Origin: a virus
Taxonomy: Duplodnaviria; Heunggongvirae; Uroviricota; Caudoviricetes
DNA: 12,040 bases
IMG/VR virus record: IMGVR_UViG_2751185968_000006
Strand: one strand, 5' to 3'
Part shown: positions 8,183 to 12,040 of the stretch, piece after piece
How the letters are laid out: every line of letters begins with the position of its first letter
Numbering within the stretch: the stretch's first letter is position 1
Made by a program: the position numbers and the translations under genes
The notes under the pieces: model-generated
The model's database searches: none
What the model was told of the DNA's origin: nothing
Seen by the model: the letters and a program-made list of their open reading frames with translations, nothing else

Positions 8183-8530
8183 TTATAGCGGCGCTACATC
8201 ATCCCCATCGATACTAATAACCCCATCTTTTTCCAGCTTGTACAGCCAGCGCCGGAAGTTTTTCATTTCATACCCCAGCTTTTTCATGTCATCACGTAAC
8301 AGCGGGATCGTGCACTTGTCGCCGTTCTGTGTGCGTGAACGGATGCACCCCCATAGCGCGGTATGGTTTTCCGTCTTGTTCCCTGCCTCCTCGATGCGCT
8401 CCAGTTCAACAGGAGGGCGCGGATCATCCACCACCACCAGCGACGTGATTAATTCACCGTCAGCGTCGGTAAAAAGCTCCACCACGCGTAAGTCATATGC
8501 GGCTTCTTTGAGTTCCTCCGCGTCCTTCAT
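8183..8530 (-). CDS. Replication protein, C-terminal fragment (second piece of a frameshifted primase/helicase-type gene)
   Basis: This frame stays open upstream of the annotated ATG to about 8638 and there encodes DESARGSSAFRASLDAEY, the expected continuation after the HHSGKD motif of RecA-like replication ATPases. Confidence 0.6.
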   Translation of the reverse strand: MKDAEELKEAAYDLRVVELFTDADGELITSLVVVDDPRPPVELERIEEAGNKTENHTALWGCIRSRTQNGDKCTIPLLRDDMKKLGYEMKNFRRWLYKLEKDGVISIDGDDVAPL

Positions 8531-9582
8531 TTTGGTGCATGAGATAACCAGCGCTTTGCTTCCTGCGTCCTCCCTGCGTATCCGGTATTCAGCATCCAGC
8601 GAAGCACGAAATGCACTGGAACCGCGCGCGCTTTCGTCTCATCCTTGCCGGAATGGTGAACCACCAGCACCGTGGCCCCTGTGCGTCGTTTCAGTTCGTC
8701 ACAACCACGGATAAACGCCCCCATATCACGGGAATCATTTTCATCATTCCCACCAAAGCAACGCGCCAGCGTATCCAGAATAATCATGCGTACAGGTTTA
8801 CCCGTTTCCCGCTCCACCTGACGGGCAGCGATAACCATTTCATCAACATCAAGCGGGGCAGCCGGAAAGATGGGGCGGTTTACCAGATACAGATTTTTCA
8901 CCTGCTCATCGTGCACAACCTCCCAGGCTTTTACACGACGCGGAACGCCGATACCGCCTTCACCAACCACATAGAGAACCGCACCATGTGCAACCCTGCG
9001 GCCTCCCCACTGGCGACCAGTGGCAACATGGCACGCCCACGATCCGGCAAGGAATGATTTATAGGACCCGCTAGCCCCGTATATGCTGCATAGCGATACC
9101 GCCGGAATAATCCCCTTAACCACGTAATCCAGTTGCGTGTCGTATCCGGTAGATCCAACGCTCATCGGTAGCGTGGTTTTTCGCTGGTGGTTTTTTTCTT
9201 CCACCGGCTCTTTCCCGCGCACCCGTTCCAGGTATTCGCGCCAGTTCTCCCGCATATGGCTGTGCATCCCTTCGGGGTAATAATTCGCATCAGTTACACC
9301 CGCCGCCGCCAGCTTGTGCGCAATGGCATTAATATTTGATGGCCTGATGTGGCCTGCCTTGTACAGCCGGACACAATAGCGCCCCTCGTCGATGATTCTC
9401 AGGTCTGCCAGTTCATCCAGTTGATCATCAGCCAGCACAACGGGAGGCACATTATCGCCAGCCAGTCGCCCGTCCTGTTCCTGCCACTGTTTTGCATGTG
9501 CCCAGGCATCACTACCCGCAAAAATAATGACTTCGGTCATCTTGTCGTAAGGCTGTTTTTTTAAGTTCGGTGCGCTTTTCAT
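8527..9582 (-). CDS. Primase/helicase-type replication protein (RepA-like P-loop ATPase), N-terminal fragment ending prematurely after a frameshift
   Basis: Walker A GASGSYKS, Walker B MIILDTLARCF, then VLVVHHSGKDE typical of RepA-like helicases. The frame then reads TKARAVPVHF... to a stop at 8527, just downstream of a (CG)4 tract at 8623-8631. Confidence 0.75.
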   Translation of the reverse strand: MKSAPNLKKQPYDKMTEVIIFAGSDAWAHAKQWQEQDGRLAGDNVPPVVLADDQLDELADLRIIDEGRYCVRLYKAGHIRPSNINAIAHKLAAAGVTDANYYPEGMHSHMRENWREYLERVRGKEPVEEKNHQRKTTLPMSVGSTGYDTQLDYVVKGIIPAVSLCSIYGASGSYKSFLAGSWACHVATGRQWGGRRVAHGAVLYVVGEGGIGVPRRVKAWEVVHDEQVKNLYLVNRPIFPAAPLDVDEMVIAARQVERETGKPVRMIILDTLARCFGGNDENDSRDMGAFIRGCDELKRRTGATVLVVHHSGKDETKARAVPVHFVLRWMLNTGYAGRTQEAKRWLSHAPK

Positions 9583-10117: not shown

Positions 10118-10343
10118 GGCTTACATCCTCAGGAAATTTTCTTCTGTAACGCGCCTCTGCCACATATTCCGCATAATCGGCGGCGATATTCAGTACATCA
10201 AGCCCCGTTGATTTATATTCTCTCGTGGAAAGTAAGAAAAAAGCCGCTCTAATAAGTTCTGGCATTGACGAAAGCGCATCAGCCGCATCATCAGGAACGC
10301 CGGGAAATTCCTGTTTCAGGGAATTAAAACGATCATCACGCAT
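10110..10343 (-). CDS. Hypothetical protein (77 aa from ATG 10343; the supplied ORF extends to 10391)
   Basis: ATG at 10343 is preceded by a G7 Shine-Dalgarno run and overlaps the upstream stop codon (ATGCGTGA). Confidence 0.45.
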   Translation of the reverse strand: MRDDRFNSLKQEFPGVPDDAADALSSMPELIRAAFFLLSTREYKSTGLDVLNIAADYAEYVAEARYRRKFPEDVSHA

Positions 10344-10557
10344 AACCCCCCCCATTTTCACAATCAGCAACAAGAATATTTTTAGCGTCATTCAGCGACC
10401 GCGTTGCGATGTATCGGATACATTCCAGGGCGAACTGTGTCCGGTCTTTCTGTTCTTCTCCCTGCGCAAGCTCTGCAGTGCATTCAATATCAATAAGCGC
10501 GTGCATCAGCGTAGTGAGTGCGGCGGCTGCTGCGTTCGGTGTGGTTTTATTGTGCAT
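10336..10557 (-). CDS. Hypothetical protein (73 aa from ATG 10557; the supplied ORF extends to 10599)
   Basis: ATG at 10557 is preceded by AGGGGGAAA. No family recognised. Confidence 0.45.
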   Translation of the reverse strand: MHNKTTPNAAAAALTTLMHALIDIECTAELAQGEEQKDRTQFALECIRYIATRSLNDAKNILVADCENGGGYA

Positions 10558-10747
10558 AGGTTTCCCCCTGACGAATACGGGCGGCGAATACAGCAACACA
10601 ACCGGACGGGCAACGGCTACGCGCTTCGCGTTCCGTCCAGGCGGTTACGTGGATGATTTGAGATTCTCCGGCACTCAGGGCCAGAAAACGCCACACAAAG
10701 GCCGTTTGTGTGTGTACAAGGTGTGGTATATGATTTACGGCAACCAT
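10547..10747 (-). CDS. Hypothetical small protein (66 aa), likely first gene of the leftward operon
   Basis: ATG at 10747 is preceded by TAGGAG with a 5-nt spacer. A structured leader hairpin (10779-10809) lies upstream. Confidence 0.35.
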   Translation of the reverse strand: MVAVNHIPHLVHTQTAFVWRFLALSAGESQIIHVTAWTEREARSRCPSGCVAVFAARIRQGETYAQ

Positions 10748-10836
10748 AACGGCTCCTAGTTTACGTTGTTGGTTAGAAGCCCTGCGAGTGGTAATGACAC
10801 TTGCGGGGCTTTGCTTTTTTAAGTGCTCTTGTGTTA

Positions 10837-10883
10837 AGGTGGCCACCTAACAATGGAAAGGCTAATTCAATAGGTGACCACTT
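10837..10883. promoter_or_regulatory. Divergent control region with two related operator-like sites and a consensus -35 hexamer
   Basis: Perfect 12-bp palindrome AGGTGGCCACCT (10837-10848) and a related half-palindromic site AGGTGACCACTT (10872-10883), about 35 bp apart. TTGACA reads on the minus strand at 10888-10883. Confidence 0.35.
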
Positions 10884-10941
10884 GTCAATAATCAAACGCG
10901 ATAAAAGCCCTAAAGGGGACGGGCAATCCCCACAATTCAGA

Positions 10942-11073
10942 ATGCGAATTTCTCCAGAGCTAAAAGAGCAATTCGACAAAGAAGCACAGAGCGACGGCAT
11001 AAGCCTAGCCAACTGGCTTAAAGAGTTGGGGCGCACTGAACTAAAGCGGCGCGGCATAGAACCCAAAGGATAA
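10942..11073 (+). CDS. Small ribbon-helix-helix (Arc/CopG-like) DNA-binding protein, 43 aa; candidate repressor
   Basis: MRISPELKEQFDKEAQSDGISLANWLKELGRTELKRRG fits the RHH pattern of a short N-terminal beta-strand followed by two helices. It is divergent from the main operon and next to the operator-like palindromes; its RBS is weak. Confidence 0.45.
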   Translation: MRISPELKEQFDKEAQSDGISLANWLKELGRTELKRRGIEPKG

Positions 11074-11130
11074 AAACTATCAGCGCCGTGGTGTGAGGTA
11101 TTACGGCGCATTGCTATGCAGGACAACACA

Positions 11131-11304
11131 ATGACCGATAAAGAATTGACCAAAACATTATCACCGGCACGGAAAAGACGGCGCAGAAAGATAGAGCATG
11201 AATCAGAAAGATTCGCACCATGTGCTTTTGCCCTTGAGCAATTCCTTAAAGAGTATAGGGAAAAGCGCTCATTGCAGGTATGGCAACGAACTGAACCAGA
11301 CTGA
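11131..11304 (+). CDS. Hypothetical small basic protein (57 aa), second gene of the rightward pair
   Basis: ATG at 11131 is preceded by AGGA with a 7-nt spacer. It has an arginine/lysine-rich N-terminus (ARKRRRRK) and is followed by a plus-strand terminator. Confidence 0.35.
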   Translation: MTDKELTKTLSPARKRRRRKIEHESERFAPCAFALEQFLKEYREKRSLQVWQRTEPD

Positions 11305-11398
11305 TTGCATTGCCCACCAGCCTGATAGCGGCTATCATCCCCGTGCTTATGTTTGGGATCATATACACATAAGGCGCAGCGGGTTAATTGTTCAGAAA

Positions 11399-11426
11399 GG
11401 CGGCTCCATATCGGGGCCGCTTTTTT
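11399..11426 (+). terminator. Rho-independent terminator of the rightward RHH operon, convergent with alpA
   Basis: Stem GCGGCTCC (11400-11407) / GGGGCCGC (11413-11420) with one G-U pair, loop ATATC, followed by T6 (11421-11426). Confidence 0.5.
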
Positions 11427-11452
11427 CGTGTTTGTCATATCTGTGATACCCG

Positions 11453-11659
11453 TTAAGCAGCCGTTCCGCGTGCTTCCTGTTCGCGTTCTTTCTGCCAGGC
11501 CAACACATCATCCTCATACCATCCGCGACGGCGTAAACCAACGCGAAAACCCTGCGGAAATTCTCCGGCGTTGATCATGCTTTGCAGCGTGCTGTCTGCC
11601 TTGATGTGGATAATTTTTTTTACTTCCTGGCGAAAGATAATTTTTCTGATTGCTTCCAT
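11453..11659 (-). CDS. alpA: AlpA-family (phage excisionase/regulator-like) DNA-binding protein, 68 aa
   Basis: KADSTLQSMINAGEFPQGFRVGLRRRGWYEDDVLAWQ matches the AlpA/Xis-type pattern (...FP.P.K.G.R...W...EV..W) as recalled. Confidence 0.7.
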   Translation of the reverse strand: MEAIRKIIFRQEVKKIIHIKADSTLQSMINAGEFPQGFRVGLRRRGWYEDDVLAWQKEREQEARGTAA

Positions 11660-11764
11660 CGTGATTTACCTTGTGAATCCGGTGTATTCCGGTGACAAAT
11701 ACGGTAAATCATCGGATATGGGTAAAAACAGTTCCCACCGTTTTTAAACGGTATACACCGTTTT

Positions 11765-12040
11765 GGTAATGACTCCAACTTACTGATAGTGTTTTATGTT
11801 CAGATAATGCCCGATGACCTTGTCATGCAGCTCCACCGATTTTGAGAACGACAGTGACTTCCGTCCCAGCCTTGCCAGATGTTGTCTCAGATTCAGATTA
11901 TGTCGCTCAATGCGCTGAGTGTAACGCTTGCTGATAACGTGCAGCTTTCCCTTCAGGCGTGATTCATACAGCGGCCAGCCATCCGTCATCCATACCACGA
12001 CCTCAAAGGCCGACAGCAGGCTCAGAAGACGCTCCAGTGT
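11765..12040 (-). mobile_element. IS1-family insertion sequence, partial; right terminal repeat at 11765, continues beyond the right window edge
   Basis: GGTAATGACTCCAACTTACTGATAGTGTTTTATGTTCAGATAATGCCCGATGAC from 11765 matches the IS1 right terminal repeat as recalled. The insB frame follows on the minus strand. Confidence 0.9.
11780..12040 (-). CDS. insB: IS1 InsB transposase, C-terminal part (gene runs off the window edge)
   Basis: Minus-strand translation [86 protein letters not shown] matches the InsB C-terminus as recalled; it is in frame to the window edge. Confidence 0.85.

Follow-up and report, generated by a model that had tools for sequence, protein, structure and literature searches.

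We analysed a stretch of DNA of 12,040 nucleotides (IMG/VR virus record IMGVR_UViG_2751185968_000006), called here, at its full length, the window, which represents a phage satellite of E. coli belonging to the capsid-forming phage-inducible chromosomal island (PICI) type, located between tRNA-Pro/yejM and yejO. The interval between its Icd/Kil-like gene and its AlpA-like gene is, as a whole, best explained as an early-control ('immunity') region in which an Arc-like repressor is combined with two further layers of control, a reading to which we give a probability of roughly 0.7. In this region, a small Arc-like repressor very probably binds two operators, O1 and O2, silencing the main leftward operon. 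A preliminary description of the window had already proposed a ribbon-helix-helix (RHH) repressor with two operators on the leftward promoter, and the comparison of loci supports this proposal. The comparison set consisted of about 50 related loci (59 loci fetched, one genome per species, plus E. coli loci). The core of the switch is made of the following elements.

10882-11073, plus strand: Arc-like RHH repressor gene, 63 aa, TTG start, recognised from homologues, codon rates, the Arc profile and AlphaFold2.
10837-10848, no strand: O1, a perfect 12-bp palindrome, AGGTGGCCACCT, lying over -10/+1 of the predicted repressor promoter and at +5 to +16 of the predicted leftward transcript.
10872-10883, no strand: O2, AGGTGACCACTT, in the spacer of the leftward promoter, covering the Shine-Dalgarno (SD) sequence and start codon of the repressor.
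10859-10888, minus strand: predicted leftward promoter TTGACA-N18-TAGCCT (analogue of P4 PLE), with a predicted start near 10852.
10832-10840, plus strand: predicted extended -10 promoter of the repressor, TG-T-TAAGGT, TGTTAAGGT, with a predicted start near 10847.

The preliminary description had reported two rightward open reading frames (ORFs), at 10942-11073 and 11131-11304, facing the AlpA-like gene. Both are present, but the first, taken there as a 43-aa RHH protein, makes up the C-terminal two thirds of a gene of 63 aa whose start codon is the TTG at 10882, as indicated by the homologues and their conserved N-terminus; the 43-aa form would be devoid of the DNA-reading strand. The TTG codon is preceded by AGGTGA. 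In annotated relatives a protein of 63-64 aa, MST(I)IKRDK.PKG.G..P.F..RI.PELKEQ...GIEPKG, is encoded in the same frame as in the window, and a database search returned 44 homologues, nearly all of 63-64 aa, across the Enterobacterales (Providencia, Erwinia, Xenorhabdus, Dickeya, Pantoea, Morganella, Proteus, Edwardsiella, Serratia and others), among which the N-terminal residues S2, R6, D7, G12, G14, P17, F19 and R22 are invariant. Non-ATG starts were found in several homologues, with TTG among them in several other loci. When the window was compared with locus L005, which also has a TTG start, five of the six differences in the first 20 codons were synonymous. Across 39 distinct repressor coding sequences the substitution rates at codon positions 1, 2 and 3 were 0.29, 0.23 and 0.60, respectively, and in 713 of 740 pairs conservation was higher in the plus frame than in the antisense one.

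By sequence similarity over its beta-alpha-alpha core, the repressor is assigned to the Arc-like branch of the RHH (Arc/MetJ) superfamily. A profile of 32 homologues matched P22 Arc (1b28/1myl) with an E-value of 1.2e-3 over Arc residues 2-49, including the PQF-x-R strand, the alignment setting KGMSKMPQFNLRWPREV... against kGdGksPqFkmRitpeL..., and PHROG 228, 'Arc-like repressor', matched the RHH protein at 3.1e-4. The Pfam matches to HicB (E = 0.0035) and Arc (0.12) were both under the cut-offs, and a weak RelB match was also seen. The AlphaFold2 model of the monomer exhibited helices at residues 25-37 and 42-56 with a predicted local distance difference test score (pLDDT) above 90; no strand was formed, since in a monomer none is expected. 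The top Foldseek matches of this model were Arc structures, with template-modelling (TM) scores of 0.69-0.86 (target-normalised) and weak E-values (0.1 or higher). The name 'HicB family antitoxin', given by NCBI to the homologues, rests on weak similarity, and the region is no HicAB system: the protein consists of the RHH part alone, with no HicB N-terminal domain and no HicA nearby, and the downstream ORF has no Pfam or NCBIfam match. PADLOC assigned no defence family to the RHH protein, the 57-aa protein encoded at 11131-11304 or the Icd-like protein, its weak matches being solely to SWIM and membrane proteins of relatives.

The perfect palindrome noticed in the preliminary description and the related site 35 bp away are both present, as O1 and O2. 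They are the only matches with at most two mismatches in 12 kb, where 0.36 are expected, and at least two matches arose in 11 of 200 shuffles. Considering the 41 loci in which the sites were compared, from more than 10 genera, a second copy (O1) of the 11 bases located 5' of the start codon (O2) is found about 32 bp further upstream, in most cases inverted. The two sites of a locus agree at 8-11 of 11 positions (at least 9 in 40 of the 41 loci), while the sites themselves differ between loci. In these 41 loci the operator sequence class follows the residues of the repressor beta-strand, at strand positions 18, 20 and neighbours, as listed below.

Strand QSPQF(R/K)MR: operator core GGTG(A/G)CCACC.
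Strand K(A/S)PPFHMR: operator core GGTGTACACC.
Strand KAP(A/T)FQ(I/V)R: operator core GGTGTGTACC / GGTACA(C/T)AC.
Strand (L/W)SPTFQIR: operator core TACGTACGTA.
Strand KSPTFQIR: operator core AAGGTACGTACCTT.
Strand K.P(M/L)FNVR: operator core GGTATAGACC.
Strand KSPIFSVR: operator core GGTCCATAC.
Strand KSPMLPIR: operator core GGCATATAC.

The loci L003 and L004 are the most direct comparison, for they keep alpA at 97% and the second rightward gene at 100% identity, yet their repeated operators are entirely different. In these two loci it is the first rightward gene that differs, being either a YlcI/YnfO-family protein or an RHH allele of 46% identity. Linkage alone is therefore inadequate to explain how operator tracks repressor, because these swaps change both and keep alpA and the second gene. 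The repressor and its operators appear to be exchanged as a cassette.

Two groups of relatives carry other proteins at this position or of this family. In the E. coli loci L002, L003, L008 and L070-L074 a YlcI/YnfO-family protein, which is probably of RHH type too, takes the place of the Arc-like gene, accompanied by its own set of three repeated sites (e.g. GGTGTCAGCCAC, three times), with the leader, the hairpin and the Icd-like gene unchanged. A more distant RHH homologue (MPKTKDRTPKGEGRS.AFQLRIHPE) was found in the Pantoea and Erwinia loci L043-L060; its genomic surroundings are different and conserved across species, and it is directly preceded by a hairpin and T-run whose loop, GTGTTGGTAGC, is the same as in several satellite hairpins.

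The TTGACA of the leftward strand, also pointed out previously, is present as the reverse complement of 10883-10888 and overlaps the start codon of the repressor; the corresponding -10, TAGCCT, is read from 10859-10864 as the reverse complement. Of 38 distinct loci, 36 have an exact TTGACA and 32 have a TAnnnT hexamer 17-18 nt further on. On the opposite strand, the predicted repressor promoter has a -35-like TTGCTT at 10811-10816, and the motif TGnTAnnGT lies 47-51 nt (mostly 51) 5' of the repressor start codon in 34 of the 38 loci. The rightward unit had been described as diverging from the leftward operon. The two directions are indeed opposite, but the predicted promoters stand face-to-face with overlapping footprints, their predicted starts lying about 5 bp apart, so they should exclude each other. 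With O2 in the leftward spacer and O1 on the -10/+1 of the repressor promoter, occupancy of the operators would shut the operon off and place the repressor under its own control. Repression of the leftward operon together with negative autoregulation is thus the simplest reading of the predicted promoter/operator layout. In phage P22 the Arc operator is likewise placed between the -35 and the -10 of Pant, as O2 is here. We hold with good confidence that the Arc-like repressor acts on O1 and O2 at the face-to-face promoters.

The second layer concerns a hairpin located between the operators and the first gene of the leftward operon, together with the RNA that it would terminate.

10776-10812, plus strand: hairpin SL2, probable intrinsic terminator, 15 pairs, with a U-run at 10813-10820.
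10741-10820, plus strand: predicted cis-antisense RNA of about 80 nt, made of SL1, the conserved linker GUUGGUUAGA, SL2 and the U-run.
10742-10774, plus strand: SL1, opposite the icd-like SD and AUG, which covaries too.
10729-10734, plus strand: predicted -10 box TATGAT of the antisense RNA, with a weak -35 TTGTGT at 10706-10711.
10547-10747, minus strand: Icd/Kil-like gene, 66 aa, first gene of the leftward operon and proposed target of the switch and of the antisense RNA.

The hairpin at 10776-10812 was confirmed, while its earlier assignment to the leftward leader was not, as its T-run and its G·U pairs are those of the plus strand. Together with the terminator at 11394-11426 it forms the region's two best terminator-like sites, both on the plus strand, and the T-run next to its stem exists on that strand only. 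Upon folding of 10741-10822 (82 nt), the plus strand gave -35.5 kcal/mol (z -5.28) and the minus strand -21.5 kcal/mol (z -2.33). The same bias was observed in 35 related loci: the whole RNA stretch was more stable on the plus strand in all 35 (mean -34.0 vs -21.6), and the terminator stem-loop in 34 (mean -22.2 vs -15.6). Each hairpin contains 1-6 G·U pairs on the plus strand (mostly 2-5), compared with 0-1 on the minus strand. After shuffling as a control for composition, the mean z was -4.96 for the plus and -2.64 for the minus strand, with the plus strand favoured in 34 of 35. Using RNAalifold and pair counting on the plus strand, 93.8% of the cells were paired and compensatory changes were found at 19 of 22 pairs; the covariation score was 0.56, against 0.23 in shuffles (none of 500 as good) and 0.09-0.15 for slid partners. 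These data indicate that the hairpin is selected on the plus strand, most likely as the site where an RNA antisense to the Icd/Kil-like gene terminates.

A TAnnnT hexamer is present at a fixed place upstream of the icd-like start, 5' of the predicted antisense RNA, in every related locus examined, with a variable interior (TATGAT, TACACT, TAGACT, TATGCT, TATATT, TACAAT, TAGAAT and others); the N-terminal Icd codons around it vary among loci and are read in different frames. The hexamer, the hairpin and the strand bias together lead to the prediction of an RNA of about 80 nt that starts at the icd-like start codon. Such an RNA would be fully complementary to the icd-like SD, to the AUG and to 73 nt of the 105-nt leftward leader. 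Rfam returned no matching family at gathering or permissive thresholds, just terminator look-alikes (rnk_pseudo, E = 0.07), and for C4 and isrK no match was obtained at the gathering threshold or at E up to 10. We favour, with moderate confidence, a cis-antisense RNA directed against icd/kil.

The third layer involves a long frame on the minus strand, a feature that the preliminary description did not include, and the gene next to which it begins.

10773-11438, minus strand: eta-like read-through ORF, 221 codons, 666 nt, antisense to both rightward genes, third codon positions shared.
11453-11659, minus strand: AlpA/Vis-like helix-turn-helix gene, upstream of the switch on the leftward strand and convergent with the rightward unit.

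The eta-like ORF starts 14 nt after the alpA stop and its TAA lies 25 nt before the icd-like ATG. The NCBI Prokaryotic Genome Annotation Pipeline (PGAP) calls it 'hypothetical protein', and the protein-family searches (PHROG and NCBIfam) gave no family match. In relatives the corresponding frame is open over 0.5-1.5 kb, in many other genera as well as in E. coli (0.5-1.3 kb), where it spans the end of alpA, both rightward genes, the operators and the hairpin and commonly continues in frame into the Icd-like gene. In the 135 nt located 5' of the repressor gene, the 38 loci contain 31 stops in the eta-like frame (22 loci are without any), compared with 133-165 in each of three other frames and 48 in the plus frame that is in phase with it. 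As it is open and depleted in stops in relatives, the eta-like frame is probably more than noise. Nevertheless, module boundaries in relatives follow the rightward genes, and the minus-strand ORF is labelled a pseudogene in most annotated relatives. The AlpA-like gene itself matched phrog_66 at 5.5e-7 and Pfam Phage_AlpA at E = 0.0035, under the family cut-off, and PGAP names it a helix-turn-helix regulator.

The proposed mechanism has at its core a 63-aa protein that would act on two matched sites about three helical turns apart, controlling a near-consensus leftward promoter predicted to drive the icd/kil-like, replication and capsid genes. In a second layer, the plus-strand RNA of about 80 nt would keep the toxic first gene from being translated and might also trigger termination. 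By analogy with P4, transcripts from a helper-activated alpA promoter would, in the third layer, cross the switch while ribosomes translate the eta-like ORF; this translation, running across the operators and the leader, would circumvent both controls and hamper synthesis of the repressor. Such a bypass by eta-like read-through during helper-driven induction is a tentative idea, which we consider slightly on the doubtful side. In the one Gram-negative PICI studied experimentally, induction occurs via helper-dependent AlpA expression (PMC6092414). The switch more likely sets the quiescence or immunity of the internal promoter, as at PLE in P4, rather than island induction. Taken to its full extent, the proposal would be a three-layer, two-strand switch with the repressor gene wholly antisense inside a translated eta-like ORF, a type undescribed for satellites; this we regard as possible and unlikely.

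Several alternatives were weighed against this early-control reading. The RHH protein could belong to a type II toxin-antitoxin system, neutralising the 57-aa protein, in which case the palindromes would merely autoregulate the pair. The order of the genes, an RHH gene and then one for a small basic protein, is antitoxin-like, and the weak HicB and RelB matches and the NCBI naming mentioned above agree with it. Yet the RHH gene stands alone in most loci and is elsewhere followed by an unrelated second gene, the 57-aa protein has no toxin-family match, neither a HicB N-terminal domain nor a nearby HicA was found, and in 36 of 38 loci the leftward TTGACA promoter has O2 within its spacer, which together make this system very unlikely. 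Hardly more credible, and if anything a little less so, is the binding of O1 and O2 by another factor (AlpA, a helper-phage protein or the Icd-like product), with the RHH protein regulating something else: adjacency by itself gives some covariation, and AlpA is the only regulator experimentally shown for a Gram-negative PICI, but with a 97% identical AlpA and near-identical leaders the operators are different whenever the first rightward gene differs, and a palindrome about three turns from a second copy that lies in a promoter spacer is the classic Arc/Mnt arrangement.

The hairpin at 10776-10812 might instead act in the leftward leader, as a stabiliser, an attenuator or a processed RNA of the P4 CI / P1 C4 type. 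It does lie inside the predicted 105-nt leader, about 25 nt 5' of the icd-like ATG; in P4 and P1 the equivalent leader contains immunity RNAs of the same strand, and C4/isrK homologues occur in some Gram-negative PICIs. With the T-run on the plus strand only, about 16% of the paired cells being G·U on the plus strand and hence A·C mismatches on the minus strand, the plus strand more stable in 34-35 of 35 loci even when composition is controlled, and Rfam giving no C4/isrK match, this role is improbable, while being the strongest of the alternatives. The weakest, to which we attach next to no probability, is that the interval is merely the coding sequence of a 221-aa leftward protein and that the small rightward ORFs, the palindromes and the hairpins are incidental. 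The 666-nt frame is open right after alpA and stop-depleted in relatives, but its product has no family match, the conservation counts given above favour the RHH frame, with position 2 the slowest on the plus strand, the module boundaries track the rightward genes, and the operator, promoter and RNA features covary as nucleic-acid elements.

Other observations weigh against the early-control reading itself. All promoters and start sites are predictions; the leftward -10, TAGCCT, is weak, and a simple promoter scan flagged none of the three predicted promoters, which we attribute to the one weak hexamer that each of them carries. As the repressor and its operators adjoin, part of their covariation is linkage. 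For the eta-like frame, the amino-acid sequence looks like antisense noise, the continuity with the Icd-like frame is broken in the window, and in a motif-based check the frame was in phase with the icd-like ATG in only 11 of 20 scorable loci, a modest proportion, for which reason an in-frame eta-like/Icd-like fusion is not claimed as general. The codon-position test of the 57-aa ORF, made on six distinct sequences, did not separate plus-strand from antisense coding. Finally, the RepA/AAA_25 helicase of the window (8183-9582) is split near 8631 by a 1-bp deletion into 351 aa and 115 aa, where the closest relative L001 has an intact protein of 469 aa; this suggests a defective island copy or a sequence error. 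The island is possibly defective given the frameshifted helicase and the missing integrase, on whose side an IS1 is found.

Downstream of the repressor, the rightward unit continues with two elements.

11131-11304, plus strand: second rightward gene, 57 aa, Arg-rich, with the core SPARKRRRRKI..EHESERFAPCAFALE.
11394-11426, plus strand: intrinsic terminator of the rightward unit, 14 pairs then T6, convergent with alpA.

The 57-aa ORF matched phrog_21027 at 1.6e-15 and has an SD sequence, AGGA, 7 nt upstream. Its family is almost wholly confined to Escherichia/Shigella, the gene follows either an Arc-like or a YlcI/YnfO-like repressor, and PGAP calls it on the plus strand in L070, L071, L073 and L074. 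A two-gene rightward unit closed by a strong terminator had been described previously. The unit does end at a true plus-strand hairpin, at 11394-11426; the 57-aa gene is optional, being absent from about 28 of 40 switches, in which the RHH gene stands alone. We interpret it as optional cargo in a variable slot, probably expressed together with the repressor. In L005, L006, L007, L035 and L040 the slot 3' of the repressor holds unrelated genes, whose products are a 118-119-aa SWIM zinc-finger protein, a 144-147-aa protein predicted to lie in the membrane, or a protein of 395 aa; in this the slot is reminiscent of one for morons or defence genes that is expressed during quiescence.

The terminator at 11394-11426 folds at -21.7 kcal/mol on the plus strand (z = -5.3), compared with -14.0 on the minus strand, and has two G·U pairs and a T-run on the plus strand only. 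At least two unrelated types of terminator hairpin are found at the same place in relatives, which argues for function. Between the second gene and this terminator (11305-11393), a plus-strand promoter-like TTGCCC-N17-TATCAT (11310-11338) was observed about 55 nt 5' of the terminator, and a motif, ATTGCCCACCAGCC, just 3' of the 57-aa ORF stop is kept in six loci; this part could contain a second small plus-strand RNA or a regulatory site.

When the switch region (10300-11750) served as the query, the closest complete relative to be found was L001 (strain MS 21-1), which is 99.5% identical there and 90-97% identical over the rest of the window. The region also occurs, at 98-99% identity, in O55:H7/O157 strains, and roughly 1,700 E. 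coli genomes have it. On one strand it carries, in order, an integrase, a small ORF, a helix-turn-helix (AlpA-like) gene, the 221-aa 'hypothetical protein', the Icd-like gene, small ORFs, the RepA helicase, SSB, PerC, the major capsid protein, a decoration protein and TerS. Through this relative, the features of a PICI were found, i.e. a small island beside a tRNA gene in which int, alpA, primase/helicase, capsid and terS are co-oriented. In the window, an IS1 (InsB-like) extends from 11780 to 12040, where relatives have the small ORF and the integrase, so the left end of the island (int, att) lies outside the window and may be displaced. A search of a phage collection gave merely three weak matches of 230 bp, without useful annotation.

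The Icd-like gene matched NCBIfam NF033153 at 6.1e-18, is named 'host cell division inhibitor Icd-like' by PGAP, and has an SD sequence, AGGAG, 5 nt 5' of its ATG. P4 Kil matches NF033153 too, at 1.6e-21, which places it in the same Icd-like family; tblastn of the Icd-like protein and of the 221-aa ORF against P4 gave nothing significant, so that the link to P4 Kil is solely via the NCBIfam model. Among seven relatives scanned, the first leftward gene was Icd-like in five and encoded a SymE toxin in one. The latter, in L042 (a metagenome-assembled genome of the Enterobacteriaceae), is a SymE type I toxin (2240-2365; PF08845, 2.6e-13) that replaces the Icd-like gene behind the same repressor/operator/leader architecture. 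In L003, L004 and L007 the leader is separated from the operon by an additional 'ash family' pseudogene and another copy of the Icd-like gene, which suggests duplication or recombination within the leader region. Additionally, a terminator-like hairpin on the minus strand (CACACAAACGGCCTTTGTGTG then GCGTTTTCTG) was noticed at 10692-10712, within the first 20 Icd-like codons, at a location reminiscent of the P4 leader immunity terminator.

The locus and its roughly 50 relatives point to a widespread protein-based immunity module, in which an Arc-like or YlcI/YnfO-like repressor goes together with matched operators and a promoter pair that is conserved, with at least nine specificity classes across the Enterobacterales. 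The annotation can be corrected accordingly: the repressor goes under the name of a HicB antitoxin or is reduced to a fragment of 43 aa, and in this island and its closest relative one minus-strand 'hypothetical protein' is shown instead of the plus-strand genes. In Gram-negative PICIs the activator is AlpA and the repressor was reported as not identified (PMC6092414). Judged on sequence comparison, the module is a candidate for that repressor and a variant of the P22 immI / P4-type immunity regions. If the three-layer view were true, this 'missing repressor' gap would be filled, AlpA-driven transcription and translation would silence repressor synthesis by collision, overrun the operators and unmask the RNA-guarded kil/icd, and enterobacterial PICI- and P4-like satellites would fall into immunity groups according to their operator/repressor classes. 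The literature searches found no description of the module, no RHH/Arc-like PICI repressor and nothing pertinent on YlcI/YnfO function; the zone from alpA to the replication genes has been described as a variable 'Bro zone', sometimes with P4-like immunity RNAs (PMC10111431).

Compared with known systems, the switch resembles Stl (Rpr) of the pathogenicity islands found in Staphylococcus aureus (SaPIs) and other PICIs of Gram-positive cocci, in that transcription of the repressor gene leads away from the satellite's main operon, which Stl keeps quiescent and the Arc-like repressor would keep so here; Stl differs by its unrelated fold, being a large helix-turn-helix protein, and derepression by helper proteins has been demonstrated for it. 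The predicted RNA has the geometry of SymR, reportedly an RNA of about 77-80 nt with its promoter at the toxin start codon and complementary to the 5' untranslated region and start of the toxin (Kawano et al. 2007), and the relative L042 has SymE in this exact position. Nevertheless, the RNA sequences are unrelated, the toxin is Icd-like here, and the module is placed inside a satellite repressor switch. With P1 immI (c4 RNA-icd-ant) it shares an Icd-family inhibitor as first gene of the operon and a small RNA that would mask its ribosome-binding site; in P1, however, C4 is trans-acting and cut from the same transcript, whereas a cis-antisense RNA with its own promoter is predicted here, and there is no ant.

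The likeness to P22 immI is threefold: the repressor is a homologue of Arc in sequence and, by its model, probably in fold, one operator is set in the -35/-10 spacer of the promoter for a harmful early gene, and a small cis-antisense RNA (sar in P22, predicted here) covers the ribosome-binding site of that gene. Here a single repressor gene runs against the operon, whereas in P22 arc is inside the operon and a separate mnt exists; two palindromes 32-35 bp apart take the place of one 21-bp operator, the repressor has a conserved 10-residue N-terminal extension compared with Arc, and the guarded gene is icd/kil-like instead of ant, in a host element that is a satellite. With the P4 early region, the shared features are the order int, AlpA/Vis, long ORF over the internal promoter, Icd/Kil-like gene and then primase or helicase, and a long frame that begins beside the AlpA/Vis stop, often in frame with Kil. 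In P4 eta/kil, translation of the long ORF from the upstream late promoter prevents the immunity-specific termination (PMC10111431). The control itself differs, for P4 uses a same-strand processed CI RNA with seqA/seqC pairing, while here a protein repressor is encoded on the opposite strand inside the eta-like frame and the small RNA is predicted to be antisense, no C4/isrK-type RNA having been found by Rfam; as this defining RNA is absent, the region is not of the C4/CI RNA immunity type. Its gene order, operator placement and predicted RNA are those of a region that may be regarded as a hybrid-like of P22 immI and the P4 early region.

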